Positions 1,605 through 27,606 of a DNA stretch of 64,000 bases are shown here, piece after piece (the first letter of the stretch is position 1; each line of letters opens with the position of its first letter). The notes below the pieces were generated by a model. That model ran no database searches. It saw only the letters and a list, made by a program, of their open reading frames with translations, and was not told the DNA's origin. The translations under genes and the position numbers were made by a program. This stretch comes from an uncultured Candidatus Saccharibacteria bacterium (GTDB taxonomy: Bacteria > Patescibacteriota > Minisyncoccia > Phycocordibacterales > UBA12088), in contig CAZLUD010000001.1 in the NCBI GenBank assembly GCA_964562615.1, positions 38,937 to 102,936 of the forward strand, read 5' to 3'.

Positions 1605-2573
1605 CTATCTATGTAGCGCCAAGGTAAGTAAATGATCCAAAAAGTCTGGAAATTCGCACCCTACCGCTTTTAGCGCTTTTGGCACGAGGGATTCGCTGGT
1701 AAGTCCCGGGAGGGTATTAGTTTCTAGGTAAAAAATGCCTCGTTTTGAATGAATGATAAAATCGCTTCGTGAGTAATGTCTGAGTCCTAACGCTTCATGA
1801 ATGCTTTTGGCAAGACGTGATAATTCATAAGTTTCGTCTTTGGTGAAGTTGCCTGGACAACGCTCTTCACTATTACCTTTATATTTTGCATCATAGTCAA
1901 AAAAGCTACTTCCTGTCTTTGGGACTATTTCTATTGGCAACATGGCGTACAGTGGTTCAGAACGAAAATGTTCAAGCACCCCAACTGTTGCCTCCTTGCC
2001 TTGTATATATTCCTCAACTAACACCCTTGGGCTTATTTCAAACGCGGCGCGTACCGCATCTTCAAATGCAGCAAACGTACGTGGTAGTGACACCCCTACA
2101 CTAGAGCCGGAGTGTGCAGGCTTTACCACAAGTGGTGGTGCAAATGTTTTAAATGCACGAACCAAGTCTCCCGCGTGCGTACTTGAAACCACCAACTCAA
2201 CAGACCCTGGTGTTTTTAGCCCGGCTGTTTTTGCAATATCCTTTGCGCGTAGCTTATTCATTGCAAACGCACTCCCTAGTGCCTTTGAGCCAGTATAGCG
2301 GACCCCAACAGTATCCATAAGACGCTGTATCTGCCCATCCTCACCATATGTACCGTGAAGCGCATTAAATACTACATCTACTTGTCGTAGCACTGAGATT
2401 GGTTCTACAGGTCTTCCTTGATGGTGCCACACACCACTTGTATCAATAAAAATATCTTTTGCGTGATACTTTTCACTTGGGAGATGTTGTAGTACCTCGG
2501 CACCTGTACGCAAAGACACCTCATACTCATGTGAGGGTCCACCACGAACCACGCCTACTCGTACCCTATGCAT
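1605..2573 (-). CDS. ddl: D-alanine--D-alanine ligase
   Basis: ORF track 1605..2618. Start moved to the internal ATG giving MHRVRVGVVRGGPSHEYEVSL, the canonical Ddl N-terminus. ATP-grasp body with EEYIQGKEATVGVL and C-terminal LETNTLPGLT. Confidence 0.85.
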   Translation of the reverse strand: MHRVRVGVVRGGPSHEYEVSLRTGAEVLQHLPSEKYHAKDIFIDTSGVWHHQGRPVEPISVLRQVDVVFNALHGTYGEDGQIQRLMDTVGVRYTGSKALGSAFAMNKLRAKDIAKTAGLKTPGSVELVVSSTHAGDLVRAFKTFAPPLVVKPAHSGSSVGVSLPRTFAAFEDAVRAAFEISPRVLVEEYIQGKEATVGVLEHFRSEPLYAMLPIEIVPKTGSSFFDYDAKYKGNSEERCPGNFTKDETYELSRLAKSIHEALGLRHYSRSDFIIHSKRGIFYLETNTLPGLTSESLVPKALKAVGCEFPDFLDHLLTLALHR

Positions 2574-2607
2574 ACAATAATTATAGCACCAGGTGTCACT
2601 TCTCCTA

Positions 2608-3861
2608 TTACTCTCCAAATGATGCGCGTTGGCGCTTTTTTCTGTGCCACTCTATAGCAAATCGGTGTGCCTCGGCATTCGCTAAAATAATTGCTCGATC
2701 AATTGATGCTATTGCAGAGAGAGCAGGCGGCATGATGCCGATTATTTCTTTTGCTTTGTGATGCTCATCTTTTGTCACTGCAACAACAGGTATTTCATAG
2801 CCAAACGACGCAAGCACCTTTTGTGCCACACTCAGTTGTGCCTTAGCTCCATCTACAACCACCAATGTTGGGAGTCGCCACTCATGGTGAGTACATCGTC
2901 GCTCCAACACCTGCTTTAATGCACCCGTATCATCCGCACTTGTTATGCCGTTTATAATAAATTTTCTGTACTCAGTTTTTTGCACCTCCCCATTTTCAAC
3001 CACGGTCATAACTCCGACCATTTCCTTTCCTGAGGTGTGCGCAATGTCATACGCCTCAATGCGCACGGATGAGCCTGGCTCGTACAATGCTTCTCGCTTG
3101 ATAAGTGAAATGTCCCGTATGTGTTTAAGTGCGTATAGCTGGCGCTTTCGCTCCCCTGCTCGTTCAAACAACTCAGCATGTGCATACTCTTCCATCTCTT
3201 TGCTTAGTCTATCCAAGAGCTGTTTCTTCTTTCCTGAAAACAGAAGAATAATGTGTCGAATTGTTTTTGCATACTCACGCACACCATCGGCATCACTTTT
3301 TGGATATATACCTAATGATTGATAAAAGGCAATTTTGCCCTTTTCTGTCTTTGATGTAGCACTACCAACTGGATGCTTGGTATCAAAGAATGGAAAAATC
3401 TTTCTTATGAGTAGCAACGCTTCGGTTAGCTGATTTCCATACGGAAATGGTCCAAAAAGCTTTTTGATTTCTGATTTTTTAAATGCAGTAGACAAATCTT
3501 TTCCGCGTACCTTAAGCACTCGTGGAAATGCTTCATTGGTAATCACCACATAGTTATAGCTTTTATCATCCTTAAGGAGCGTGTTGTACTTTGGCTTATA
3601 GGTCTTAATTAAATTGGCTTCAAGGATAAGCGCTTCAAGCACTGAGTCTGTCGTACGATAATCTAGTATGTGTGCTTCTTCAACCATTTTTACAATGGTT
3701 GGACTTCTGCTTTCCACTAAATCCTTTGCGAAATAGCTTTTTGTTCGATCTTTTAGCGATGTTGCCTTACCTATGTACAACACCTTTTTTTGCTTATTAA
3801 GAAAAAAGTACACCCCTGGTGTTTGCGGTATATTTTTATTTTTTAGATATTCCTTTTGCAT
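2608..3861 (-). CDS. uvrC: Excinuclease ABC subunit C, short form (417 aa)
   Basis: N-terminal GIY-YIG motif (PGVYFFLNK...VLYIGKATSLKDRTKSYF) and a C-terminal RNase-H-like endonuclease region (LVVVDGAKAQL...). It lacks the long UvrB-interaction/HhH extension of canonical ~600 aa UvrC. Lies in an operon-like block with uvrA and uvrB. Confidence 0.8.
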   Translation of the reverse strand: MQKEYLKNKNIPQTPGVYFFLNKQKKVLYIGKATSLKDRTKSYFAKDLVESRSPTIVKMVEEAHILDYRTTDSVLEALILEANLIKTYKPKYNTLLKDDKSYNYVVITNEAFPRVLKVRGKDLSTAFKKSEIKKLFGPFPYGNQLTEALLLIRKIFPFFDTKHPVGSATSKTEKGKIAFYQSLGIYPKSDADGVREYAKTIRHIILLFSGKKKQLLDRLSKEMEEYAHAELFERAGERKRQLYALKHIRDISLIKREALYEPGSSVRIEAYDIAHTSGKEMVGVMTVVENGEVQKTEYRKFIINGITSADDTGALKQVLERRCTHHEWRLPTLVVVDGAKAQLSVAQKVLASFGYEIPVVAVTKDEHHKAKEIIGIMPPALSAIASIDRAIILANAEAHRFAIEWHRKKRQRASFGE

Positions 3862-3885
3862 ACGAGTAGTGAAAAGAAGTGCCCC

Positions 3886-4146
3886 CTAAGAGGGGGCGGG
3901 AACAAGCTTTACATAGAGCGCATCAAATTTTTGATGTAGATCAACGTGTGGGCAAGTTTTAAAGTATAGCGCTATTTGCTGTAAGCAAGGGATGCTAAGT
4001 TCTGCTTCTTGTAAGTGCACAAGCACCTGTTCATAGTACATTCTTGAGTCGGCACCTTCACTTGTAATGGACGCTTTATAGATAGCATCCAATATTGCTC
4101 CCACATGTTGGGAGGGTGTAAGTATATGCAACCCGTGACTTTGCAT
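3886..4146 (-). CDS. Hypothetical small protein between uvrC and uvrA
   Basis: ORF track 3886..4188. Start moved to MQSHGL because AAGGGGG lies 7 nt upstream. No recognisable motifs. Confidence 0.4.
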   Translation of the reverse strand: MQSHGLHILTPSQHVGAILDAIYKASITSEGADSRMYYEQVLVHLQEAELSIPCLQQIALYFKTCPHVDLHQKFDALYVKLVPAPS

Positions 4147-4187
4147 GACAAGCCCCCTTTTGACTTCCCTAAAAAATAATACTAGCA

Positions 4188-6770
4188 CTACTTTAAATAT
4201 CTTGCCAGATATGCGCCGGTGTGGCTTCCTTTGGTCTTTGCCACTTCTTCTGGGGTTCCCTTGGCTACCACCTTACCACCTCGCACTCCACCCTCTGGGC
4301 CAATATCAATAAGGTAGTCTGCGTTTTTAATAAGATCAAGATTGTGTTCAATAATAACCACCGAGTGACCTCTTCGCACTAGCTCTTGAAGGATATCAAT
4401 GAGTCGCTGTACGTCTTCATAATGAAGTCCCACAGTAGGCTCATCAAGAAGGTATATTGTTTTTGTTACACTAGATCTATATAGCTCTGATGCAATTTTT
4501 AACCGCTGCGCCTCGCCACCTGAGAGAGTGGTCGCACTTTGTCCAAGCTGAAGATATGAAAGACCGGTTTCTTCAAGAATACGTAGACGATCATATATCT
4601 GAGGGATATCTTCAAAAAAGACAATCGCCTCTTCAATGGTCATTTGCAGTATTTCGTGAATACTCTTCTTTTTATACTTAACCTCAAGTGTCTCCTTCAT
4701 AAACCTCTTTCCGTCGCACACATCGCAGGTTACATATACCGTAGGAAGAAAATGCATTTCAACCGCAATTAGTCCATTGCCTTGGCATGTTTCGCATCGC
4801 CCACCTTTTACATTGAAAGAAAATCTACTTGGCTTCCATCCACGTGCTCGTGCTTCATTTGTCTCCGCAAATAGCTCACGTATAAAGGTAAATGCGCCCG
4901 TATACGTAGCTGGGTTTGATCGAGGGGTACGCCCAATTGGCGATTGGTCAATAAGTACCGTACGCCCCAAGTATTCTGTACCGGTAAGACTCGCTATGTT
5001 GTATAGCTTTGTGGTTCTGTGACTTTTTTCAAGTCTTGCAAGAAGATTTCTATGCAGAATTTCGTACATAAATGATGACTTACCAGACCCCGAGACACCA
5101 GTGATGCATACCAGCTTTCCAAGCGGAACATCAACATTCATATTTTGGATATTAAATATTGATCCGCCACGGATTTTAAGCGAGCCTTTGTCTGTATCTC
5201 TCCTACTCTCTGGCACCGGTATTTTTTTGTCTCCTCGAAGGTACGCCACCGTGCTTGAGCCACTCACATCCTTCTTTGCCTTTAACAAGGTATCAACATA
5301 GTCGGCTACCATCACCTCACCACCGTGCCGTCCTGCCTTTGGTCCGATATCAATAAGGTAATCAGCAGATAGTATGGTGTCTTCATCGTGCTCTACTACT
5401 ATAATGGTGTTACCTAAGTCTCTAAGGTCTAGCAAGGTTTTGATAAGTCTGTCGTTATCACGTTGATGGAGTCCAATGGTAGGTTCATCAAGTACATAGA
5501 GTGCCCCGACAAGTCCACTACCAAGCTGGCTCGCTAGGCGTATGCGCTGTGCTTCGCCACCTGAGAGGGTGTTTGCTTTTCTATCGAGGGTAAGATACTC
5601 GATACCAACATTGATCATAAATTGCAGGCGATTGCTTATCTCTTTGAGTATCACACCAGCAATTTCTTTCTCTTTCTTTGTAAGTGAAAGAGTAGCAATA
5701 AACTTCATTGCATCTTCTATTGAAAGATTTACAAATTCAACGATGTTTTTACCCTCTCCTTTTTTATCTCCGCCCACATATACATTGAGCGCTTCTTTTC
5801 TTAGGCGGGCGCCATGACAAACATCACACACTTCGCTATTAAATATCCCCGCCATGCCAAGCCCATTACAGTTAGGACACGCGCCATACGGTGAGTTAAA
5901 AGAAAATAGTCGTGGCTCCACCTCCGGAAAGGGCGTACCGTCGGTAGGGCAAATAAACTTAGATGAGAGCATTTGCTCTGTGCCATCTGGAAATATGAGT
6001 TTAATAAGTCCATCGCTTTCATGCAGCGCTTGTTCGATTGCTTCTCCTAATCGCTCGTCTGAGCCTTTTTTATCTTCGGTAAATTCAGTAACAAAAATAT
6101 CATCCACCACCACATCAATGTGGTGACGCTTGTTTCTATCGAGCTCTATTTTGTCACGAAGGGATTTTGTTTCGCTGTCTATCACTACCTGCTCATACCC
6201 TTTACCCAAAAGGTCATAAAGCATTTGATAGTACTCGCCCTTGCGCCCCACAACAAGCGGTGCAAGTATGCGAAGTTTTAAATCATTAACCGCGACGCCC
6301 ATTACCTTCTTACTAGTCTTCTTTAGGTCAATTGCTTTAACTGCGTGTATAGCGACTGCCTTCATTTCTTCAATGGACATCTTAGTGATGCGTGCATCAC
6401 CCTCCATACAATACGCCTTTCCGACACGCGCATATAAAATACGAAGATAGTCGTATATTTCAGTAATGGTAGCTACAGTAGAGCGTGGGTTATTGGAGCG
6501 AGACTTTTGATCTATTGATATCGCAGGCGAGAGCCCCGTTATTTCTTCAACATCAGGCTTTTGCATCTGATTAAGAAATTGACGTGCATAGGAAGATAGC
6601 GACTCAACATAGCGTCGTTGTCCTTCTGCAAAAATGGTATCAAATGCAAGTGATGATTTTCCTGAGCCAGACATGCCTGTTATGGCAATCATTTTATTCC
6701 TTGGCATTTCTACCGTGATGTTTTTGAGATTATGTGTTTTTGCTCCTTTTACTATTATTTTGTCGTCCAT
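4188..6770 (-). CDS. uvrA: Excinuclease ABC subunit A
   Basis: N-terminus MDDKIIVKGAKTHNLKNITVEMP. Two ABC ATPase cassettes (GMSGSGKSSLAF and GVSGSGKSSF) with a Zn-finger CxxC insertion. Confidence 0.9.
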   Translation of the reverse strand: MDDKIIVKGAKTHNLKNITVEMPRNKMIAITGMSGSGKSSLAFDTIFAEGQRRYVESLSSYARQFLNQMQKPDVEEITGLSPAISIDQKSRSNNPRSTVATITEIYDYLRILYARVGKAYCMEGDARITKMSIEEMKAVAIHAVKAIDLKKTSKKVMGVAVNDLKLRILAPLVVGRKGEYYQMLYDLLGKGYEQVVIDSETKSLRDKIELDRNKRHHIDVVVDDIFVTEFTEDKKGSDERLGEAIEQALHESDGLIKLIFPDGTEQMLSSKFICPTDGTPFPEVEPRLFSFNSPYGACPNCNGLGMAGIFNSEVCDVCHGARLRKEALNVYVGGDKKGEGKNIVEFVNLSIEDAMKFIATLSLTKKEKEIAGVILKEISNRLQFMINVGIEYLTLDRKANTLSGGEAQRIRLASQLGSGLVGALYVLDEPTIGLHQRDNDRLIKTLLDLRDLGNTIIVVEHDEDTILSADYLIDIGPKAGRHGGEVMVADYVDTLLKAKKDVSGSSTVAYLRGDKKIPVPESRRDTDKGSLKIRGGSIFNIQNMNVDVPLGKLVCITGVSGSGKSSFMYEILHRNLLARLEKSHRTTKLYNIASLTGTEYLGRTVLIDQSPIGRTPRSNPATYTGAFTFIRELFAETNEARARGWKPSRFSFNVKGGRCETCQGNGLIAVEMHFLPTVYVTCDVCDGKRFMKETLEVKYKKKSIHEILQMTIEEAIVFFEDIPQIYDRLRILEETGLSYLQLGQSATTLSGGEAQRLKIASELYRSSVTKTIYLLDEPTVGLHYEDVQRLIDILQELVRRGHSVVIIEHNLDLIKNADYLIDIGPEGGVRGGKVVAKGTPEEVAKTKGSHTGAYLARYLK

Positions 6771-6818
6771 ATCAATTGATTGCTCAAAAGAGCACGTTAC
6801 GCGTGGTTCGAGTATACA

Positions 6819-8888
6819 CTATTTTCGCTTCCATCTCTTGCGCGCCTTTTTTGCTCCATCGTCTCCCATAAGCTCTGCAATTTCGTCTCGCAGAATGGCG
6901 GCAGTCTCAAAGTCTAGTAATTTTACCGCTTCTTCCATTTGTGTGCGTTTTTCAGCAATGGTTGCCTCTGGGTTGTTGTCGTATAGCGCTCGGTCTATTT
7001 CAAGTAATGCGCCGACCGCCTTTTTGTGTTCGGTTCGAAGGTGTTCTGTGATGTCATTAATAGATTTCTTGATACTGGTTGGTGTAATATTATGAGCAAC
7101 ATTGTATGCGTGTTGCACTTCACGTCTGCGACGTGTCTCGTTAATCGCTTTACTCATTGAGTCAGTCACCTCGTCCGCATACAGTATCACCTTACCTTCG
7201 ACATTTCGTGCAGCTCTTCCCATGGTTTGCATCAGGGATGTTTCTGAGCGCAAAAAGCCTTCTTTGTCAGCATCAAGTATCCCCACCAACGTTACTTCTG
7301 GTAGATCAAGACCCTCACGCAACAAGTTTACTCCTACCAGCACATCAAATGTCCCTTTTCTAAACTCAGTGAGTGTGGTGATTCGGTCAATGGTTTTTAC
7401 ATCGCTATGCAGATACTCTGCCTTAATATCTTTTTCTTTGAGAAATTCAGCAAAGTCTTCTGCCATTTTCTTGGTAAGAGTAGTCACAAGCACTCGTCCT
7501 CCCTTTTTTACTGCCGTACTTGTCTCGTGTATAAAATCTTTTACTTGTCCGCCGTACTTGCCTTTAGCAAGAATCGGACGAACCTCGATTTCGGGATCAA
7601 GTAGTCCTGTTGGGCGCACTATCTGCTCTGCAATGCCACCCATTGGCGGCACTGAATGTTCCTTTTCATAAACACCAGGAGTTGCCGAGGTATAGATTGT
7701 TTGCCCCACTCGAGCCTCAAATTCAGTAAAGGTAAGTGGTCGATTATCTTTTGCGCTTGGTAATCTAAATCCATGGTCAACCAGTGTCTGCTTTCGCGAT
7801 TGGTCACCAGCAAACATGGCCCTGAGTTGTGGCACCGTCACATGAGACTCATCAATAATGGTAATAAAGTCAGGTGAGCCGTCTTTATGATGTGGAAAAT
7901 AATCAATGAGCGTATACGGTGGATCACCAGCGTTTCTTCCATCAAAATGTCGTGAGTAGTTTTCTACCCCATTGCAATATCCAACCTCTCGTATCAGAGC
8001 AAGGTCATAGTTCGTTCTACGTTTGAGACGCTCTGCTTCTAGAATTTTTCCTTCTTTCTCAAACACCTTTAATTGCGCCGCAAGCTCAGCCTTAATATCT
8101 TTTGCAGCGCGCTCACGTTCTTCTTCAGGAGTTACGTAGTGCTTTGCAGGGAAAATAAAAATACTATCTACCTCTTTTACGAGCGCTCGAGAGACAGGGT
8201 CAATGATTGATATTGATGATATACCTGAACCCATAAATGCTACTCGATAAATAATCTTTTCATTGATGGGCATTATTTCAAGCACATTTCCTCTCCCTCT
8301 AAACTCCCCCGGCGAGAGGTCTGCGTTAGTACGGGTAAAATAAATCGCCACAAGCTTTCTTACCATTTCAGCCCTCGTTATTGTCACCCCTTTTGCCAAT
8401 TTGACATTAACCTTTTCATACTCACTTGGGGAGCCAAGTCCGTAAATACATGATACTGATGCCACCACAATGACATCGGTTCGAGTGAGGAGTGCTTGAG
8501 TTGCCGAGTGACGCAAGCGATCAATCTCTTCGTTTACCATTGCCTCCTTTTCAATATAGGTATCAGACGTGGGCATGTACGCCTCTGGTTGATAGTAATC
8601 GTAGTACGAAACAAAGTAGTGCACTGCCGCATCAGGAAAGAACTCTTTATATTCTTGCGCGAGCTGTGCTGCAAGTGTCTTGTTATGAGCAATAACAAGC
8701 GCAGGCTTGTTTACCGTTGCAATTACATTAGCGGCAGTAAATGTCTTGCCTGAACCAGTTACACCAATAAGGGTCTGGTGTCGAAGACCCTTTTCGTATC
8801 CTGATAGCAATGTCGAAATAGCCTTGGGTTGATCACCTGAGGGCTTATACTTTGATACCAGGGTAAATGGGTTGCGTGACTTTGCCAT
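6819..8888 (-). CDS. uvrB: Excinuclease ABC subunit B
   Basis: LIGVTGSGKTFT Walker A, YDYYQPEAY motif and C-terminal UVR domain (ILRDEIAELM). Confidence 0.95.
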   Translation of the reverse strand: MAKSRNPFTLVSKYKPSGDQPKAISTLLSGYEKGLRHQTLIGVTGSGKTFTAANVIATVNKPALVIAHNKTLAAQLAQEYKEFFPDAAVHYFVSYYDYYQPEAYMPTSDTYIEKEAMVNEEIDRLRHSATQALLTRTDVIVVASVSCIYGLGSPSEYEKVNVKLAKGVTITRAEMVRKLVAIYFTRTNADLSPGEFRGRGNVLEIMPINEKIIYRVAFMGSGISSISIIDPVSRALVKEVDSIFIFPAKHYVTPEEERERAAKDIKAELAAQLKVFEKEGKILEAERLKRRTNYDLALIREVGYCNGVENYSRHFDGRNAGDPPYTLIDYFPHHKDGSPDFITIIDESHVTVPQLRAMFAGDQSRKQTLVDHGFRLPSAKDNRPLTFTEFEARVGQTIYTSATPGVYEKEHSVPPMGGIAEQIVRPTGLLDPEIEVRPILAKGKYGGQVKDFIHETSTAVKKGGRVLVTTLTKKMAEDFAEFLKEKDIKAEYLHSDVKTIDRITTLTEFRKGTFDVLVGVNLLREGLDLPEVTLVGILDADKEGFLRSETSLMQTMGRAARNVEGKVILYADEVTDSMSKAINETRRRREVQHAYNVAHNITPTSIKKSINDITEHLRTEHKKAVGALLEIDRALYDNNPEATIAEKRTQMEEAVKLLDFETAAILRDEIAELMGDDGAKKARKRWKRK

Positions 8889-21288: not shown

Positions 21289-22497
21289 TCAGATAGCAAG
21301 TGAGGGGTCACATGCCGTCATGTCAGTTGCACTGCTATCACATACCGCTCCTACCTCCTTTGCGGTGTCAGACTGTTCTTGTAATAGAGCAGCGCCAAGT
21401 ACGTAATACAAGCCAAACAGTACAAGCACGATACCCGCAACCAGTGTTGACCACTTCACAAATCTGGTTGACGTCGCCCACACCTTCATTGAAACAACCG
21501 CGATAGCAAATACCACGATTTCATCCAACATATAAAAGAACATAAAAACAGCAATCGAGCTTAGATAACCAAATGTAGAAAGTTCGAGCGTAGAGAGAAA
21601 TCCAGCAAACGTTACCGGTATTGCCGCAGAACAAGGAAATTCAACCACGGTTATCACACCAGCAAAGACCATCACCGCGCCTAGTGTTGCCATAATCCCC
21701 TTCCCAGCAAACGCCTTTTCGAGTAACGCAGAAGTACTCGAGACCACCATACCTGTACCCGCATCGCACGTAAGACCTTGAGTACGAAAACGATAGTATT
21801 CGTGCAAAAAATACACACCTCCCGCAAATGAAATGGCACCTACTACAAGTTCAAGCGCGCCTACATATGGACCAATGGCAGTAAAGAGCGTATGCCACAG
21901 TACGATAAGCAATCCGTAGGTAAATGCAGTAATAGCAATAAATAATCCGCCATATAGTACTACCAACTTTCTTTCACGCAGCTTGAGTACCATACCAAGC
22001 ACCAACATAAGCGCTCCTAGTGAACACACATTAAATCCATCAAGGACGCCAAGGAGTGCTGAAAGTGTAGGCACTGAATACGAGGTTGGATCCACAGAAC
22101 CTATAAACGGAAGCGTAAAGACGTTTGGTACCGCTGCCTCTATATTCATTAGTTTGTTATAGATACGCTCCTTAACGCCCGCATCAAAGCCCACAAAATA
22201 ACTACCATCGTAAAAGATGAGCGGTACAAGACCCCGATAGCGTTGCGCCTCAGGATACTCTTGTAGTACCTCATTTAGTACCACAATGTTTTGTGCCTGT
22301 GTAATATCAAATCGCTTCACCACTAGCTCTGGTACTTCTAGATGCATCTCATCCAAAAATTGCTGAGCCGCCTGACAGTGTGGACAGGTTGGTGAATAAA
22401 AAATCAAAAGAGGTTCAGTGACTCCCTCGCTTGCCATTACTACAGAGAGCGGAGAAAACGACACCAACAATGACAGTATAAAATATAGTATTTTCAT
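21289..22497 (-). CDS. Thioredoxin-like domain fused to a CcdA/DsbD-family transmembrane thiol-disulfide transporter
   Basis: Signal peptide, CPHC-containing Trx-like domain, then a multi-transmembrane CcdA-like domain with conserved Cys residues in the membrane helices. Confidence 0.7.
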   Translation of the reverse strand: MKILYFILSLLVSFSPLSVVMASEGVTEPLLIFYSPTCPHCQAAQQFLDEMHLEVPELVVKRFDITQAQNIVVLNEVLQEYPEAQRYRGLVPLIFYDGSYFVGFDAGVKERIYNKLMNIEAAVPNVFTLPFIGSVDPTSYSVPTLSALLGVLDGFNVCSLGALMLVLGMVLKLRERKLVVLYGGLFIAITAFTYGLLIVLWHTLFTAIGPYVGALELVVGAISFAGGVYFLHEYYRFRTQGLTCDAGTGMVVSSTSALLEKAFAGKGIMATLGAVMVFAGVITVVEFPCSAAIPVTFAGFLSTLELSTFGYLSSIAVFMFFYMLDEIVVFAIAVVSMKVWATSTRFVKWSTLVAGIVLVLFGLYYVLGAALLQEQSDTAKEVGAVCDSSATDMTACDPSLAI

Positions 22498-22503
22498 GTA
22501 GCA

Positions 22504-22944
22504 CTATGATACTTCACTGAGCCAACGTTTAGCCTTTTGCACGTCGGTAAACCATTTGATCTTATCATCACCAACACGCACTAAAGAGAGCACATGAAGC
22601 ACTCCGAGCGCTAAACTTTCTATATGTGATGAGGAACCTAGTACCGCAACTCTTTTTAATTGTGGTTGATTGAGTATTCGTGCGTATATTTCTTTAGTTA
22701 GAGGTGTGAGCACTTCTGTTGCACTGTCACCAAATTGTATTAAATCTACAATAGCGGTATACGACTTCTCTGGACTCATTCGTAAAATCTTTCTAAAGTC
22801 ATCCTCTATAAGCTCAGCGGTTCTCGCATTATCCTCCTCATGTGGTTCATTCCAAAAAAATATGAGCACAAGGAGATTCGACTCAGGATTGTTCTCTGAA
22901 TGAAATAACCTATAGCCCTCCCTAAGGAGTTCATCTGTCTTCAT
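22504..22944 (-). CDS. Hypothetical protein, possibly STAS/SpoIIAA-like fold
   Basis: Weak pattern only (…RVAVLGSSS…KIKWFTDVQKAKRWL). No firm motif. Confidence 0.3.
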   Translation of the reverse strand: MKTDELLREGYRLFHSENNPESNLLVLIFFWNEPHEEDNARTAELIEDDFRKILRMSPEKSYTAIVDLIQFGDSATEVLTPLTKEIYARILNQPQLKRVAVLGSSSHIESLALGVLHVLSLVRVGDDKIKWFTDVQKAKRWLSEVS

Positions 22945-22980
22945 ACCAACAGTATAAATTAAATTACCCTACCCGTTAAG

Positions 22981-23223
22981 CTAGTACCGCTTAAGCAGCA
23001 AAATAAACATGAGCGCCGCCGCGCCGAGTGATACCAGATTAACTGCAAAATTATAGGTCAGTACGCCAAAGCTAGCTTCATTAAGCAACAACATGAGGAC
23101 GCCTGCACCAAAAAGGGCTGCAAATGAGGGGCGGATGTCGTTTCCGTACTTATACAACGAGTACACCTGAACTACCCACGCAAGCATGATAAGAAGCAAC
23201 CCACCGGAAACAAGATCAATCAT
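22981..23223 (-). CDS. Small hydrophobic membrane protein (80 aa)
   Basis: Two predicted transmembrane helices; ORF track. Confidence 0.35.
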   Translation of the reverse strand: MIDLVSGGLLLIMLAWVVQVYSLYKYGNDIRPSFAALFGAGVLMLLLNEASFGVLTYNFAVNLVSLGAAALMFILLLKRY

Positions 23224-23432
23224 GAATGACGTTCAATGGAGATAAAGTACCCCATGCAAATACCCATTACTGAAAGTGATCCAACCATAAACGGCAACAG
23301 TGGCGCGTGTTCACTAGCAAACAACAACACGACCGCAGTAAGTCCAACGGAGATAGCTGCGATAGAAACAGCAATAGTCACAAATGGGTTATCACGAGTT
23401 TCCTTTTTTTGTACTTGTCTTGGCATATACAA
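23220..23432 (-). CDS. Small hydrophobic membrane protein (70 aa)
   Basis: Two predicted transmembrane helices; overlaps the downstream gene by 4 nt. Confidence 0.35.
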   Translation of the reverse strand: MYMPRQVQKKETRDNPFVTIAVSIAAISVGLTAVVLLFASEHAPLLPFMVGSLSVMGICMGYFISIERHS

Positions 23433-23634
23433 ACATTACTTATTGTTTGTAGTATACCGCACATTGCAAGGTTGCGATGAAAGTAATCCACACATCACCA
23501 CACTGAGTGTTTGTTATCCAAAGATAAGAGTAAACACCGTCGCAATGATACCTAGTGACACCCCAAGTGAAAGACCAAAAAACCACTCGATACCATGCTT
23601 GTCTAAATTAAATCTTCGTTCAACTTCTCGTTCA

Positions 23635-25692
23635 CTAATTAAATAAAGCCTTGAGTATTCTTCTTGTAGTGTTTGTAAGGCGTCGCGACTCATACGCTCT
23701 ACAGAGGGATAGTATTGCGCGTGCAGGGATAGGATACGGGTACGTAGTGTCAAGTAAATCTTTGACTGTAAGACCTTTTGCAGTTGCGAGTATAAGTTCT
23801 CGTACAAGCTCACCAGCATAGTCGCTGACAAGCGTACCACCGTAGATTTCTCCATTTTTACCAATATAAAGCGAAATGTATCCATGGGTAGCGTGTTCTA
23901 TTATAGACCTATCGTCATCACGTAATGAAAATACTTCTTTAGTATAAAATTGCTTTCGTTCTTTGAGTTGATTCTCTTGTAATCCAAATGTCGCGAGTGC
24001 TGGAGATGTATACATCACATTTGCAAATGTGTCAAGAGATACCTTCTTCCACAATGGTCGTGGTGCAAAGAACGTACGCAACACCACTGCCGCATGGAGC
24101 TCGGTAAGGTGGGTAAACTGTGCCCCACCCGCTGCATCGCCAACCACATACACATGCTTGTTTGACGTGCGCATAAACTCATCATGAGTAATCCTATTAC
24201 CCGAGTAAGTAATGCCTGCTTTCTCTAGCAACAAACCCTCAACAGACAGTTCTCTACCGATTGCAACCAATACCTTGTCCGCTTTAATGCGCGTCGTTGA
24301 CGAACCAGAAGTCACAAATACTTCATGAGGAGTAATTTCAGTGACCGTGCTGTCCATGTAAAAATCAATCCCCTCTTTGGTCATTGTCGTATACAGCACC
24401 TCTCCCGCCTCCCTTTCATACATAGGAAGAAGGCTTCCTGTATTATTGACTATTGTTACCTTACTCCCTAAGCGTGCAAATGCCTGACCGAGCTCAAGCC
24501 CAATAGGACCAGCTCCAATTACCACCAAATTGGTAGGAAGATCATCTAAGGCAAATACTTCAGTGTTATATAGCACATGCGGAAGTGTCGCACCCGAAAC
24601 AGAGAGTTTTCGTGGCGAGCTACCTGTAGCTATCACTATTTTTCTTCCAGAATATATTTTTCCTTCTACGGACACTGAGTGTGAACCAGCAAAACACGCC
24701 GATCCTATAACAACCTCATGCCCAAGTGATCTAAGATATTCTGCGCTTTCTTTTTCTCTAAAAACTTCTTGTGCTTGTGTAAGCAACTCGCGCACCTTTT
24801 TTAATGACACCACACCCTTTGTGGTAATACCAAACTCTGAGAGTCCGCGAGCGGCATGAACTTGATTTGCAATATGTAGTAGTCCTTTACTTGGCACGCA
24901 TCCACTATTGAGACAATCACCGCCGATATTACCTTCATCCTTCTCAATAATAAGAGTTTTGCACCCCACTCTTCGCAAAAATCCAGCAATGTTAAGACCA
25001 CCAGCACCAGCGCCAATGACTATGACATCAAAATCATATGATGACCTATCCAGTATTCGTGGCAACAACGACGAAACAATAAAAAGGAGCACAAACCATA
25101 GCGCGGCAATCACCACACCAAGCACGGTCGGCATGGCAATTACATTACCAAAATACACATACGCAAACGTACCAGGGATAATACCTACCACGGTACCAAT
25201 CACGTAATCTTTTGCGCGCACTTGTGTAAGTCCAAGGACAAAATTAAGCGCATTAAATGGAAACAGCGGTACAAGACGCAAAAATAGCATGGTAATAAGT
25301 CCGTGCTGTTCTAGCTTTTTGTCGTACTCATATATGGTACGTGCATAGGTGTGAAGTACGGCATCAACTGCCTCTTTTCCAAAAAAGCGGGACAGTATGA
25401 ACGCAAGAAACGCCCCGACACTTGCCCCAACCACAACAACTGCGGTACCCGTAAACGTACCAAACAATACCCCCGCAAGTATGGTAAAAGGTGTCCCCGG
25501 AAGAAATAGCACCGTAGCTAAAGCATACAGCGCAGCAAACAGTATCAATGATTGTGCGGTTGGTTGTGCTGAAAGAAAACTCCTTAGTGCGTCAGGAGAG
25601 AGCACATCAAACAACATATAGTGATGCGATAGATACCCAATCACCATCACTACTATAAGCAATGCTGCTATCTTTAATAATGAAGCGCTCAT
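23635..25692 (-). CDS. DedA/TVP38 membrane domain fused to an FAD-dependent pyridine nucleotide-disulfide oxidoreductase (lipoamide/mercuric-reductase-like)
   Basis: N-terminal ~200 aa polytopic DedA-like region. Then VIVIGAGAGG FAD-binding fold, redox-active GGDCLNSGCVPSK, a second Rossmann fold (VVIGAGPIGLE) and a dimerisation domain. Confidence 0.75.
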   Translation of the reverse strand: MSASLLKIAALLIVVMVIGYLSHHYMLFDVLSPDALRSFLSAQPTAQSLILFAALYALATVLFLPGTPFTILAGVLFGTFTGTAVVVVGASVGAFLAFILSRFFGKEAVDAVLHTYARTIYEYDKKLEQHGLITMLFLRLVPLFPFNALNFVLGLTQVRAKDYVIGTVVGIIPGTFAYVYFGNVIAMPTVLGVVIAALWFVLLFIVSSLLPRILDRSSYDFDVIVIGAGAGGLNIAGFLRRVGCKTLIIEKDEGNIGGDCLNSGCVPSKGLLHIANQVHAARGLSEFGITTKGVVSLKKVRELLTQAQEVFREKESAEYLRSLGHEVVIGSACFAGSHSVSVEGKIYSGRKIVIATGSSPRKLSVSGATLPHVLYNTEVFALDDLPTNLVVIGAGPIGLELGQAFARLGSKVTIVNNTGSLLPMYEREAGEVLYTTMTKEGIDFYMDSTVTEITPHEVFVTSGSSTTRIKADKVLVAIGRELSVEGLLLEKAGITYSGNRITHDEFMRTSNKHVYVVGDAAGGAQFTHLTELHAAVVLRTFFAPRPLWKKVSLDTFANVMYTSPALATFGLQENQLKERKQFYTKEVFSLRDDDRSIIEHATHGYISLYIGKNGEIYGGTLVSDYAGELVRELILATAKGLTVKDLLDTTYPYPIPARAILSLCRAYESRRLTNTTRRILKALFN

Positions 25693-25693
25693 A

Positions 25694-25972
25694 CTAATTA
25701 AGTAGATACATGCCTACTGCCTCGATAGCAACCTCACCAAAATAGATGTTGTATACCACCACCGCAAGTAGTAGCAATAAGGTAAACGCAAGTACGATTT
25801 TTGTTTTATCCTCCACCCCATAAGTATCCCACACATAGTATCTATAAGAAAATTGGAGATGCTTATTCAGCACCTCCAAGATGCCACAATGGCATTTACA
25901 GCACGGTGACCGTGTGGTCAGGCAATCTAACTCCATCTTGATTTTTTCCTCCAACATGATGGAGGATCCCAT
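25694..25972 (-). CDS. Small Cys-rich membrane protein (CLTTRSPCCKCHC plus one transmembrane helix), tightly coupled to the DedA-reductase gene
   Basis: Its stop is 2 nt before the downstream start. Five Cys in 12 residues, followed by a hydrophobic helix. The N-terminal 77 nt overlap another ORF; the true start may be MELDC at 25936. Confidence 0.35.
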   Translation of the reverse strand: MGSSIMLEEKIKMELDCLTTRSPCCKCHCGILEVLNKHLQFSYRYYVWDTYGVEDKTKIVLAFTLLLLLAVVVYNIYFGEVAIEAVGMYLLN

Positions 25973-26432
25973 GCACTATTACTGCTGGGAATCTTTTTTT
26001 TGCTTGCCTAATAGCATCACGAAGGTGCCTCTCGGCATCTTCGCATCCATCAAGGCAAGGAGTATGTGCACTTAAGACAAGCACCGTAGGACTGCTGTTA
26101 ATTACTGCAAATGCAAATCCTACCATTTTCCACTGTTTTTCTATATCTACAGTTTCTCGAGAAAAATTTCCCGCTCTTACTAAAGACAACGCCCTGCCGG
26201 GTATGACGATTTTTGTCATCGGGACATGATTACCTTCCCTTAGACCGAGGATTTTGTTAACTTTTTTCGCCATCCATCTCGAATGAAGTGGATCGAAACA
26301 ACCTACCGTTACTACCTGTTTAATGTATGTTTGCTCATGCACCCCACCAAAACTTATTTGGCCTAATGTAGGAGAAAACATACCACCCTGTACAAGACTC
26401 GTCTGGTTCTCCTTTGTGACCCCGAAAGGCAA
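25896..26432 (-). CDS. Hypothetical 178 aa protein (TTG start in the ORF track; internal ATG starts possible)
   Basis: Long ORF with no family recognised (VGFAFAVINSS…LSAHTPCLDGCED…VIVHGILHHVGG). Overlaps the small Cys-rich ORF in another frame. Confidence 0.3.
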   Translation of the reverse strand: MPFGVTKENQTSLVQGGMFSPTLGQISFGGVHEQTYIKQVVTVGCFDPLHSRWMAKKVNKILGLREGNHVPMTKIVIPGRALSLVRAGNFSRETVDIEKQWKMVGFAFAVINSSPTVLVLSAHTPCLDGCEDAERHLRDAIRQAKKRFPAVIVHGILHHVGGKNQDGVRLPDHTVTVL

Positions 26433-26484
26433 TACTCCTCTGTCAGGAGGTTGTCTATAGAGTTATCAACATGTCATTTTTTGA

Positions 26485-27606
26485 CTATGATTTCCAGAAC
26501 TTTTTAGCAAAGCGCCAGCCGTATTTTGCGGCAACCAAAAGCACAAATAGGTATAAACACAGCACCACTCCGTAAGCAAGCATGGTCAAAAGTCCAAGTG
26601 TAGCTTTTTGGAATGAGTTGCTGATCTCATTTACAAATTGTTCAAATGAACCTCTCCACGCATCAGCAAGACGCTCTGTGTCAACCAGTGGTCGCTCGTA
26701 TACCGAGACGGTAAAGAAGGTGTACTCAACCCTATCTAATTCTCGGGTCTTTGCTCGCTCAAGCCTATCTATTTCTGCCTCTATCATTAGTTTCTCGTTT
26801 GTTAGGCGTTCGATAAGTTGAATCTTGCTATCAATGATAACCGCGAGACTATCTGGATCATTTGCTTTAGTAGCGATTGACTGTATCTCATTATATGAGG
26901 AGAGAGCACTCGAAAGCGTCTCATCAATAACCTCTAATTTATTAGTAAGTGTAGAAATTGCATCGGTAAAATCTTTTACCTGTTCTTGTATGGTATAGGT
27001 CGACTCTGTAACATCTTCTGGGGTATAGCTATCAAGCAACGCTTTTACTTCTAACGCCTTCTCTTTTTCTACCTTAAATCGATAGTCACATCCCCTATCT
27101 GATTCATTACTACTTTCAAAAATAACGCGAGTGTCACTCTTTAGCGCGTACACAGCATCACACAACACCCCTGATGATGTTGGCGTATACGAATAGAAAA
27201 AATCTTGCACTTCAAATGCTTCTGCGGTATTACCCACAGAAGCACCGTATGGCGGCATTGGTGGCATCACTTCAATCGCTTGTGTTGCATTTCTGGTAGA
27301 AAATGTCGCGTCGCCATATGCAGAAATGTTTACCGGTCTTGCTGATGATCCAGCCCACATTGGTGATTCGCTTTCTATACCATAACCACCGTCTTTGTAT
27401 GAAAATGAATTATCATAATCATCATGGAGAGCAAACGGCATAGATATACCTGCGGAGCGTGAGAAGGTACTCAGTGACGAAAGCACAAGTGACGTCATAA
27501 ATATACCTACTGCTAAAAATGCTACTCCAAGACCAACCACCTTAAGTACACCTATTGGTGTCTTTATCGCGTTTTTTAGAAATTGCATACGTTTGTAGTA
27601 TAGCAT
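26485..27606 (-). CDS. Membrane-anchored coiled-coil protein (N- and C-terminal transmembrane helices)
   Basis: Hydrophobic segments at both ends with a heptad-rich centre. Start uncertain: 27639 is GTG, and ATG codons lie at 27606 and 27588. Confidence 0.4.
   Translation of the reverse strand: MLYYKRMQFLKNAIKTPIGVLKVVGLGVAFLAVGIFMTSLVLSSLSTFSRSAGISMPFALHDDYDNSFSYKDGGYGIESESPMWAGSSARPVNISAYGDATFSTRNATQAIEVMPPMPPYGASVGNTAEAFEVQDFFYSYTPTSSGVLCDAVYALKSDTRVIFESSNESDRGCDYRFKVEKEKALEVKALLDSYTPEDVTESTYTIQEQVKDFTDAISTLTNKLEVIDETLSSALSSYNEIQSIATKANDPDSLAVIIDSKIQLIERLTNEKLMIEAEIDRLERAKTRELDRVEYTFFTVSVYERPLVDTERLADAWRGSFEQFVNEISNSFQKATLGLLTMLAYGVVLCLYLFVLLVAAKYGWRFAKKFWKS

Follow-up and report, generated by a model that had tools for sequence, protein, structure and literature searches.

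The window analysed here is a stretch of 64,000 nucleotides of DNA. At the locus under study, a gene for a fusion of a DedA membrane domain with a flavoprotein disulfide reductase is preceded by a gene of only 40 codons and by the end of a further upstream gene with its terminator-like hairpin. The features are as follows, in the order in which the minus strand is read.

25896..26432 (-): upstream, fast-evolving hypothetical gene, 178 aa as listed (161 aa according to gene callers), recognized from homologues
25817..25972 (-): spurious 5′ extension of a 92-aa open reading frame, including the CCKCHC codons at 25886-25903, judged from overlap, frameshift and dN/dS
25843..25879 (-): intrinsic-terminator-like hairpin of the upstream gene with an 11-bp stem, a 5-nt loop and a TTTTCTTATA tail, the top match of the terminator scan
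25823..25831 (-): TGnGATACT, resembling an extended -10 element and placed ahead of the start codon of the small gene at a distance of exactly 6 nt, recognized from conservation
25694..25816 (-): small gene of 40 codons plus TAG with a GTG start; product M/VEDKTKIVLAFTLLLLLAVVVYNIYFGEVAIEAVGMYLLN with one transmembrane helix and no Cys, recognized from conservation and dN/dS
23635..25692 (-): DedA-flavoprotein disulfide reductase fusion gene, 685 aa, ATG at 25692, recognized from profiles and a structure model
25144..25503 (-): VTT/DedA domain of the fusion, aa 64-183 (PF09335, VTT_dom; 97.4 bits, cutoff 33.9)
24886..24924 (-): redox-active disulfide motif GGDCLNSGCVPSK, aa 257-269, with Cys260 and Cys265, recognized as CxxxxC and by alignment
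23719..23742 (-): YPYPIPAR, aa 651-658, the subfamily signature in place of the His-x4-Glu acid-base pair, recognized by alignment

An earlier note on this DNA described the fusion as a 685-aa frame with a DedA-like N-terminus and a complete class-I reductase body, which the Pfam matches confirm. The VTT domain covers profile positions 1-122/123, a last transmembrane helix (aa 190-213) lies between it and the reductase, and the latter comprises Pyr_redox_2 (aa 221-527, 207.9 bits), Pyr_redox (82.3 bits) and the C-terminal dimerization/interface domain Pyr_redox_dim (PF02852; aa 557-657, 55.6 bits against a cutoff of 25.3). The DedA half has the Pro/Gly/Arg motifs of both re-entrant regions (F/LPG..P and RL.P..PF..N), and P65, G74, R139, P142, P145, F146 and N150 are invariant among 14 aligned fusions. 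The AlphaFold2 model of the fusion has a mean pLDDT of 91.4 and a pTM of 0.73, with pLDDT values of 80-95 in the DedA helical segments. Public gene calls begin the protein at Met16 (670 aa); this start is rejected because the position is not conserved, being Gly in L009 and Leu in L010, two of the three closest relatives (L011, L009 and L010, with fusions 86, 77 and 65% identical to that of the window). The N-terminal 215 aa score 12.8 bits against a cutoff of 250 with the model for UptA-type undecaprenyl-phosphate flippases (COG0586 DedA; NF052604), and we infer from a published survey (PMC10127716) and from the RefSeq name of homologues with 31-32% identity that the DedA half belongs to the COG0398 / TVP38-TMEM64 subfamily. 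Among fusions of COG0398 DedA domains, the one to PF07992 and PF02852 is the most frequent (Todor et al., mBio 2023, PMC10127716). The architecture already has its own RefSeq product name and occurs in at least 598 species genomes, at least 573 metagenome contigs (among the matches listed, proteobacterial-type fusions only) and 90 plasmid records. The protein of the window is thus a CPR member of a catalogued yet functionally unexplained fusion type, with which it shares the domain order (N-terminal DedA/VTT, an extra transmembrane helix and a complete class-I reductase) at only 30-36% identity. The proteobacterial forms are longer (about 716 aa versus 685 aa), and in L088, the one representative checked, the His-Glu pair is retained (HTYPTLAE), where the window's protein has YPYP...R. 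Arsenosugar-type genes are frequent at the catalogued loci and missing from the window and from the CPR loci; none of the catalogued loci has the 40-aa upstream gene.

Both dinucleotide-binding motifs of the reductase half are intact, namely GAGAGG (aa 227-232) for FAD and GAGPIG (aa 393-398) for NAD(P)H, and G227, G229, G232, G393 and G395 are invariant in the 119 sequences of the reductase subfamily, as are G257, G258, D259, C260, L261, N262, G264, C265, P267, S268 and K269 around the redox disulfide. The earlier note had taken the protein for a membrane-tethered flavoprotein of the pyridine-nucleotide disulfide-reductase class and had named a lack of FAD/NAD motifs on careful alignment as evidence to the contrary; the alignment upholds the assignment, with both glycine motifs and the disulfide retained. 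Structure prediction, which had been proposed as a check, gives a reductase fold matching those of MerA and lipoamide dehydrogenase (LipDH) at target TM-scores of 0.90-0.91 (Foldseek; 5x1y and 2eq6). MerA 5x1y is the best solved relative both by sequence (E = 2.8e-60) and by fold (Foldseek E = 2.7e-41). The His-x4-Glu pair of class-I disulfide reductases is absent from the fusion, in which Tyr653 and Arg658 occupy these positions: YPYPIPAR aligns with HPHPTLSE of T. thermophilus LipDH and with APYLTMAE of MerA 5x1y, and within the subfamily Y653 and P654 are invariant and R658 is found in 118 of the 119 sequences. Y653 aligns with the MerA tyrosine that stands in for the catalytic His, and Y319 with the other tyrosine of 5x1y, a position that in the subfamily is Tyr in 67 sequences, His in 29 and Trp in 18; in the numbering of Tn501 MerA, the two active-site tyrosines are Y194 and Y535. 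The fusion ends in ...SLCRAYESRRLTNTTRRILKALFN, its single Cys664 is replaced by Ile, Ala or Val in most relatives, and the vicinal C-terminal Cys pair of MerA is not present in the fusion according to the subfamily alignment. Scores fall below the cutoffs of the models for dihydrolipoyl dehydrogenase (TIGR01350; 297.1, cutoff 408.8), mercuric reductase (TIGR02053; 274.7, cutoff 454.45) and the RclA and HOSCN reductases (NF040477 and NF041853; 164 against 740 and 174 against 650). The second Rossmann strand is followed by Asn rather than by Glu or Arg, from which no preference for NAD(H) or NADP(H) can be read. With Tyr653/Arg658 in place of His/Glu and no C-terminal Cys pair, the enzyme is therefore neither a lipoamide dehydrogenase nor MerA; as far as alignment can place it, the reductase half is a member of an uncharacterised subfamily that keeps CxxxxC, has Tyr/Arg (YPYP...R) for His-Glu and lacks the C-terminal cysteines of MerA. 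An ordinary soluble disulfide is unlikely to be its substrate.

The small gene directly upstream is kept at the same place, as a frame of 40-42 aa, in L011, L009 and L010. Its start codon column is conserved (GTG/GTG/ATG/GTG in the window and the three relatives), in-frame stops lie shortly upstream of the start in L011 and L009, and the hydrophobic core of the product is LAFTLLLLLAVVVY. For five of the six pairs among these four Paceibacteria genomes the NG86 dN/dS is 0.09-0.15, the sixth giving no value owing to saturated synonymous sites; purifying selection on the peptide (dN/dS 0.11) matches that on the enzyme (0.125) in strength. Between the TAG stop (25696-25694) and the ATG of the fusion at 25692 there is 1 nt, and across the four genomes the junction is a gap of 1 nt or 2 nt or an ATGA overlap, which supports the coupling in translation, proposed earlier, between the fusion and a small membrane protein. 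Among 1.84e9 representatives, searched exhaustively, the small protein has only two relatives, of 46 and 43 aa, and a search of 5.8e9 proteins with the full 92-aa frame returned nothing except the frame itself. Against NCBIfam the peptide gives only a sub-threshold SecE-like transmembrane match; the idea that it duplicates the first transmembrane helix of the fusion was rejected, BLASTP giving no alignment. The 40-codon gene is, on the strength of this conservation, real and unannotated, and is predicted to encode a single-pass membrane peptide. The same does not hold for the longer frame of which it forms the end. The 92-aa frame at 25694..25972 (-) reads CLTTRSPCCKCHC, followed by one hydrophobic helix, and is a composite of which solely the last 40 codons are conserved as protein. 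Since 39 frames of at least 50 aa are listed in 8 kb, a frame of 92 aa means nothing by its size alone. Candidate assignments of this frame to a SNAD4 deaminase or a SUZ12 zinc domain (Pfam E of about 1e-3, below the cutoffs) were dismissed as Cys/His composition noise.

The first 52 codons, in which the Cys motif lies, run over the 3′ end of the 178-aa frame upstream, the 'CK' codons TGT-AAA contain its TAA stop (25898-25896), and the codons that follow traverse the terminator hairpin (25879-25853) and T-tract. In L011 the Cys segment is thrown out of frame by a 1-nt indel in the hairpin loop, and a TGA stands ahead of the GTG of the small gene; L009 and L010 lack the segment. In its frame dN/dS is about 0.9, against 0.11 for the 40-aa part. 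The CCKCHC half is therefore non-coding, an out-of-frame tail of the upstream gene together with its terminator. Of the frame of about 80-92 aa with a Cys motif and a transmembrane helix that had been reported earlier, the openness and the transmembrane part are real and the Cys part is not coding; nor does the description of the partner as Cys-rich, metal-binding or electron-accepting survive, as the conserved 40-aa product has no Cys and therefore cannot be such a module. The upstream gene itself is represented in L011 by a homologue with 70% identity and in L009 by one with 29% (E = 8e-15); its dN/dS is 0.6, and it matches no Pfam or NCBIfam family. The RNA fold z at its terminator is -5.4 in the window and -4.2 in L011, and a hairpin of different sequence with a U-tract lies at the equivalent place in L009 (z = -3.6). 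A special RNA as the cause of the high nucleotide identity between the window and L011 in the terminator region was rejected, the identity profile being mosaic elsewhere too, and Rfam finds only tRNAs in the window. Between terminator and small gene, the TG..ATACT columns of the extended -10-like element are invariant in the window, L011, L009 and L010, where the surrounding intergenic DNA is unalignable; a two-hexamer promoter scan did not flag the element. Its placement would imply a leaderless transcript of the small gene, the basis being a single motif of 9 nt that three independent sequences conserve.

The pairing of small gene and fusion is confined to one genus-level group of Paceibacteria. 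L012, L044, L093-L095 and about 100 further fusion loci do not have the small gene, and being missing from all more distant fusions the peptide is not essential to the enzyme chemistry; the dedicated pairing postulated earlier accordingly fails for the Cys part, which is not kept beside homologous fusions, and narrows for the transmembrane part to this clade. In about 170 loci, none of the 68-, 80-, 146- and 402-aa neighbours is linked to fusions outside the clade. The gene neighbourhoods of relatives are heterogeneous. DedA and reductase are split, overlapping genes in L044 (Parcubacteria) and L176 (Moranbacteria) and adjacent genes on the plasmid L182, arrangements that argue for the two proteins working together. 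In both split operons the reductase belongs to the same subfamily as that of the window (YPYPTATR, basic C-terminal tail) and the DedA genes lie directly upstream of it with overlapping stops and starts; unlike in the window, the DedA and reductase genes are separate and DedA is present in two copies. The L176 operon (ArsR-Trx-CcdA-DedA-DedA-reductase) further differs in adding ArsR, a membrane thioredoxin with an N-terminal CPMSGCx7C tail and a CcdA-like protein, and in a reductase with a C-terminal transmembrane helix and external thioredoxin domain, a layout found in P0053 and P0060. The subfamily thus appears to have been tethered to the membrane repeatedly, by an N-terminal DedA domain in the window and by a C-terminal helix in P0053 and P0060; stand-alone members without DedA also exist. 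Elsewhere, the fusion of L094 follows the end of an ArsR-family gene at a distance of 3 nt, MsrAB is found in L093 and L182, and DoxX and glutaredoxin in L179 and L181, with the DoxX gene after a stand-alone subfamily member in L179 and before a fusion in L181. Distant fusions are linked to CDP-alcohol phosphatidyltransferase genes. Such operons with ArsR, thioredoxin, CcdA, MsrAB or DoxX suggest a membrane-level defence against thiol, oxidant or metal stress. None of ArsR, CcdA, MsrAB or DoxX adjoins the window's own fusion, and none of the ORFs on either side of it was identified as a MerT-, MerP- or MerR-type gene. A 402-aa neighbour in the window (21289-22497) is a thioredoxin-fold/polytopic Cys protein; as a CcdA homologue it was rejected (hhalign probability 0.3, membrane part without a Pfam match).

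Several other readings of the locus have to be weighed. That the whole 80-92-aa frame is translated, with a cytoplasmic CCKCHC acting as a metal-binding or thiol relay for the reductase, for example in place of the C-terminal Cys pair of MerA, is scarcely credible. Gene callers give an 87-aa product (P0001) on 11 contigs from the open frame, a GGAGG stands 11 nt before Met13, the reductase has no C-terminal Cys pair of its own and the thioredoxin of the distant L176 operon has a Cys-containing tail; the GGAGG, however, belongs to the GGK codons of the upstream gene, the segment overlaps that gene's end, stop and terminator, relatives lose it while retaining the 40-aa part, its dN/dS is that given above and the only database relatives, of 43-46 aa, lack it. 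No MerT/MerF-like Cys motif is present in the conserved, translated part of the small protein, CCKCHC being out of frame or absent in relatives. It is unlikely that the 40 codons form a regulatory upstream ORF or leader whose translation controls the fusion and whose peptide is functionless. The stop that abuts or overlaps the fusion start in all four genomes, with no GGAGG-type motif before the fusion ATG, and the absence of the ORF from more distant fusions would fit; selection on the peptide sequence as strong as that on the enzyme, and the conserved length and transmembrane helix, argue against it.

Two further explanations concern the enzyme. MerA (PDB 5x1y, 1zk7) shares with the fusion the FAD/NAD(P)H fold, the CxxxxC disulfide, the Tyr for the catalytic His and an N-terminal accessory domain (NmerA) fused to the core, and ArsR-type regulators adjoin relatives. 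A true mercuric reductase, with the DedA domain as an Hg(II) importer replacing MerT, is nevertheless very unlikely in view of the low TIGR02053 score, the missing Cys pair with its unconserved Cys664, the Arg for Glu, the variable position 319 and the lack of mer genes nearby. RclA/HOSCN reductases with the DoxX-type RclC likewise combine a class-I flavoprotein disulfide reductase with a small membrane partner in oxidant or copper stress, but no DoxX gene adjoins the gene of the window. The reductase domain might instead serve a DedA lipid scramblase or transporter as its redox sensor or regulator and have no separate substrate: a phospholipid scramblase role connected with aerobic metabolism has been discussed as a possibility for COG0398 DedA proteins (PMC10127716), and the phosphatidyltransferase genes near distant fusions point the same way. 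This is rather improbable, because the elements needed for turnover (both dinucleotide folds, the disulfide and the dimer interface) are all invariant and the subfamily includes stand-alone reductases.

CydX, KdpF and AcrZ are small single-pass accessory subunits encoded together with their membrane complexes. The 40-aa peptide has the properties of this class (fewer than 50 aa, one transmembrane helix, the same operon as a large membrane protein, a sequence under purifying selection) but no sequence relationship to these three, and as a predicted subunit it is limited to one genus-level clade. The explanation that we favour, with somewhat better than even confidence, is that the 40-codon gene and the fusion form one unit, that the Cys half is non-coding, and that an accessory peptide accompanies a membrane reductase serving thiol-stress defence. 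Transcription would proceed from the conserved extended -10-like element and start at or beside the small gene's start codon. The sequence ahead of the fusion ATG shows no GGAGG-type motif resembling a Shine-Dalgarno element, and ribosomes therefore probably re-initiate at this ATG after the peptide, so that both products are made together. The peptide, oriented N-in and C-out, is probably an accessory subunit packed on the DedA helices. The reductase half would be dimeric and face the cytoplasm, passing electrons from NAD(P)H via FAD to Cys260/Cys265, and the DedA half, from a family of lipid and ion translocators, would anchor the enzyme on the membrane and probably hands over a membrane-borne or translocated substrate. 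The ArsR, thioredoxin, CcdA, MsrAB, DoxX and glutaredoxin genes of relatives suggest that the process countered is thiol-oxidising or thiophilic stress at the membrane. A more specific version, which we consider quite unlikely, would make the DedA::YPYP-reductase and its 40-aa subunit the cytoplasmic entry of an undescribed envelope-reducing pathway in these CPR bacteria. NAD(P)H would reduce Cys260/Cys265, and these in turn would directly reduce a membrane thiol carrier, candidates being the CcdA-like protein of L176 and the 402-aa protein of the window; thioredoxin reductase and thioredoxin would be bypassed, with the DedA domain as the membrane docking site.

The locus illustrates how a false 'motif' can arise where an open frame continues through the stop codon and the terminator of a neighbouring gene, an error of extension shared by the public gene calls (87-aa product, 11 contigs). 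For the function of COG0398 DedA proteins, the leads come from the relatives rather than from the window: the split and fused forms, the ArsR/Trx/CcdA operons and the Tyr/Arg variant of the active site.

The earlier note read the large ORF as a DedA membrane part joined to a class-I disulfide reductase, and this reading holds. The features concerned are as follows.

23635-25692, minus strand: 685-aa ORF, the DedA-reductase fusion (ORF listing and Pfam)
25694-25972, minus strand: 92-aa ORF (ORF listing)
25694-25816, minus strand: real small gene, with a GTG start, for a Cys-free single-pass peptide (comparison with relatives)
25896-26432, minus strand: upstream hypothetical gene (178-aa ORF), fast-evolving

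Pfam assigns residues 64-183 of the fusion to VTT_dom (DedA; 97.4 bits), 221-527 to Pyr_redox_2 (207.9 bits) and 557-657 to Pyr_redox_dim (55.6 bits), with a further match to Pyr_redox (82.3 bits). Among solved structures, the fusion is closest to MerA (5x1y, E = 2.8e-60) and to lipoamide dehydrogenases. Structure prediction, suggested as a check, gave an AlphaFold2 model (alignment of 119 sequences) with a mean pLDDT of 91.4, the reductase half of which superposes on MerA and lipoamide dehydrogenase with a target TM-score of about 0.9. The dN/dS of the fusion is 0.125 (Nei-Gojobori). The 685-aa start appears to be the true one, because Met16 is replaced by Gly in L009 and by Leu in L010, two related loci. 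On most of the contigs L001-L006, public annotation for this species starts the fusion at Met16 (670 aa) and the small gene at Met6 (87 aa, with a 62-nt overlap with the upstream gene); both starts are probably wrong.

The small ORF was compared among loci whose fusions are 86% (L011), 77% (L009), 65% (L010) and 51% (L012) identical to that of the window. L011, L009 and L010 each carry, immediately 5' of the fusion, a 40-42-aa ORF (MKDKTKIVLAFALLLLLGVVVYNIYFGEVAIEAVGAYLLN, MKEHSKIILAFALLLLLAVVVYSIYFGEVAIDAVSAYLLN and MNERTKIILAFALLLLLLGVVYSIYFGEVTIDPLLMLFVDTQ, respectively), the counterpart of the last 40 residues of the 92-aa ORF. In L011 the nucleotides of the Cys half are present, shifted to another frame by a 1-nt indel, and a TGA lies immediately 5' of the GTG of the small gene; in L009 two TAA codons precede its ATG and the Cys-encoding stretch is replaced; from L010 the gene upstream of it is wholly missing. 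By the Nei-Gojobori method, dN/dS is 0.09-0.15 for the 40-codon part (five of the six pairs computable) and 0.9 for the Cys-frame segment. The window codons TGC-TGT-AAA-TGC-CAT-TGT (25903-25886) cover the TAA (25898-25896) at which the upstream 178-aa ORF stops, and those after CCKCHC ('GILEVLNKHLQFS') constitute an 11-bp hairpin and T-tract. This hairpin, over the 5' half of the small ORF, is the highest terminator-like site in the scan (fold z = -5.4), and a hairpin with an unrelated sequence occupies this position in L009 (z = -3.6). Among 5.8e9 proteins the 92-aa ORF has no homologue beyond its own 87-aa gene call, and when the 40-aa peptide was searched exhaustively with phmmer against 1.84e9 cluster representatives, only two relatives came up, of 46 and 43 aa, both without the Cys part. 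The 92-aa ORF is thus a composite, whose coding part is the Cys-free single-pass peptide starting at the GTG, and the CCKCHC motif is a frame artefact. The ORF adjoining the fusion exists, its TAG lying 1 nt from the fusion ATG; the Cys-rich partner that had been proposed, out of frame in L011 and replaced in L009, falls away.

The small-gene stop and fusion start are arranged as TAG-T-ATG in the window and L011, as TAG-TT-ATG in L009 and as an ATGA overlap in L010. Since no Shine-Dalgarno-like motif is visible 5' of the fusion ATG, we infer that the two genes are translationally coupled. Six nucleotides 5' of the start codon of the small gene, all four genomes carry TGnGATACT (CATACT in L009) within otherwise unalignable intergenic DNA. 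It looks like an extended -10 element set for a leaderless transcript; a two-hexamer promoter scan did not flag it.

The upstream 178-aa gene has a dN/dS of 0.6 against L011, is 29% identical in L009 and missing in L010, and matches no Pfam or NCBIfam family. Across 21300-26850, nucleotide identity to L011 alternates between 95-98% (26450-26850, 23640-24050) and 60-80%, which suggests recombination in the population. Two overlapping genes (22981-23432, minus strand) follow the fusion after about 200 nt and encode small membrane proteins of 68 aa (two TM helices) and 80 aa (three), without a Pfam or NCBIfam family. Their conservation far exceeds that of the fusion (dN/dS 0.045 and 0.008; 68-74% identity to L012, against 49-51% for the fusion). 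A protein of 402 aa, encoded at 21289-22497 (minus strand), combines a signal peptide with a thioredoxin/glutaredoxin-like CPHC domain and a polytopic membrane part that has no Pfam family and no detectable likeness to CcdA; Cys158, Cys244, Cys289, Cys386 and Cys396 are invariant, and its synteny with the fusion is confined to the close clade.

The 119 aligned reductases comprise the window protein, 18 other DedA fusions, two fusions with a C-terminal TM helix and thioredoxin, and stand-alone proteins, the named ones from DPANN archaea, CPR bacteria, Dadabacteria and Thermodesulfobacteriota. Both dinucleotide-binding motifs, a lack of which was to have told against the reductase, are (near-)invariant, as are GGDCLNxGCxPSK, QFTHxAELHA, K-x-YPYP-T-A-S-R-I-N-K and a basic C-terminal tail, KKLTxxxKKxLRxLY. 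Tyr653 and Arg658 occupy the positions of the catalytic His and Glu of lipoamide dehydrogenase, so that the enzyme lacks the acid-base pair that acts on ordinary disulfide substrates. Tyr653 aligns with a Tyr of MerA; unlike MerA, the fusion has no C-terminal Cys pair, and its Cys664 is not conserved. The protein missed every NCBIfam equivalog cutoff, including those for lipoamide dehydrogenase (297 versus 409), MerA (275 versus 454) and RclA (164 versus 740), and its DedA part did not match the UptA flippase model. It is therefore a class member by fold and cofactor sites that lies outside every characterised enzyme family.

In some relatives DedA and reductase are encoded separately, by genes that overlap in L044 (a tandem DedA of 427 aa and a reductase of 476 aa) and L176 and lie side by side on a Metabacillus plasmid (L182, NZ_OK052578), which supports a joint function. 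In L176 (Moranbacteria, 2089-6872) an apparent operon of abutting or overlapping genes encodes ArsR, a membrane thioredoxin (cytoplasmic CPMSGCx7C tail, TM helix, external WCPSC motif), a CcdA-like protein, two DedA proteins and a YPYP reductase (the subfamily signature around Tyr653) whose C-terminal end carries a TM helix and, outside the membrane, a WCSNC thioredoxin domain. Elsewhere, an ArsR-family gene stops 3 nt ahead of the L094 fusion, MsrA/MsrB lie near the L093 fusion and on the Metabacillus plasmid, DoxX occurs in L179/L180 and on a Klebsiella plasmid (L181, NZ_CP092394), and glutaredoxin in L179/L180. These neighbourhoods are heterogeneous, yet all point to stress at the membrane from thiol oxidation, oxidants or thiophilic metals; the window's own fusion is flanked by no such gene. 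The unrelated plasmids L181 and L182 have the same order, DoxX or MsrA/MsrB, DedA(-)reductase, ABC transporter and CDP-alcohol phosphatidyltransferase, and close to it L181 also has DUF2282/DUF692 genes and one for an ECF-type sigma factor.

Distant proteobacterial-type fusions (L013-L092 and L096-L175) are of about 716 aa, and the representative checked (L088) retains the His-Glu pair. Arsenosugar-type genes (ArsS radical SAM, TIGR04167; ArsM; TIGR04282/TIGR04283 glycosyltransferases) lie within 5 kb at 29 of the 80 loci from genomes and 20 of the 80 from metagenomes (for example L035:2949-3929, L089:1896-2942 and L015:6077-6793), and a DUF547-like protein, a TIGR03169 oxidoreductase and a CDP-alcohol phosphatidyltransferase are often near. 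COG0398 DedA fusions may be tied to arsenolipid or special-phospholipid metabolism; in the literature searched, no paper names 'arsenosugar' and 'DedA' together.

Beyond the observed gene structure, domains, cofactor and disulfide motifs and coupling geometry, the reductase half would face the cytoplasm, given its need for NAD(P)H and the linker, rich in Arg and Asp, that follows the last TM helix. The fusion would dimerise and pass electrons from NAD(P)H through FAD to Cys260/Cys265, the DedA half would deliver substrate, and the 40-aa peptide would act as an accessory subunit, synthesised together with the enzyme. Among candidate substrates, a membrane-associated oxidised thiol, oxidant or thiophilic species ranks ahead of a redox-regulated DedA, and both ahead of Hg(II) or lipoamide.

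A dedicated pairing with such fusions generally is contradicted by its distribution: L012, the CPR loci L093-L095 (fusions 40-43% identical), the split system L044 and about 100 proteobacterial-type fusion loci in genomes and metagenomes all lack the peptide gene. Because the loci that carry it are 70-82% identical to the window in nucleotide sequence and wider fusions lack it, the peptide is a genus-level orphan; the window TypA has 76-82% identity with proteins that bear the names Wolfebacteria, Kaiserbacteria and Paceibacterota. Relatives with a DedA domain and redox motif number at least 598 loci (one genome per species scanned), mostly Proteobacteria, with at least 573 in JGI metagenomes and 90 plasmids in PLSDB at ≥80% coverage. 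According to Todor et al. (mBio 2023, PMC10127716), COG0398 DedA proteins are fused most often to PF07992+PF02852, and the literature searched assigns the fusion no function. The architecture is thus already known, and the window protein is a new CPR member of an uncharacterised kind, whose genuine partner would be a narrow-range 40-aa membrane peptide.
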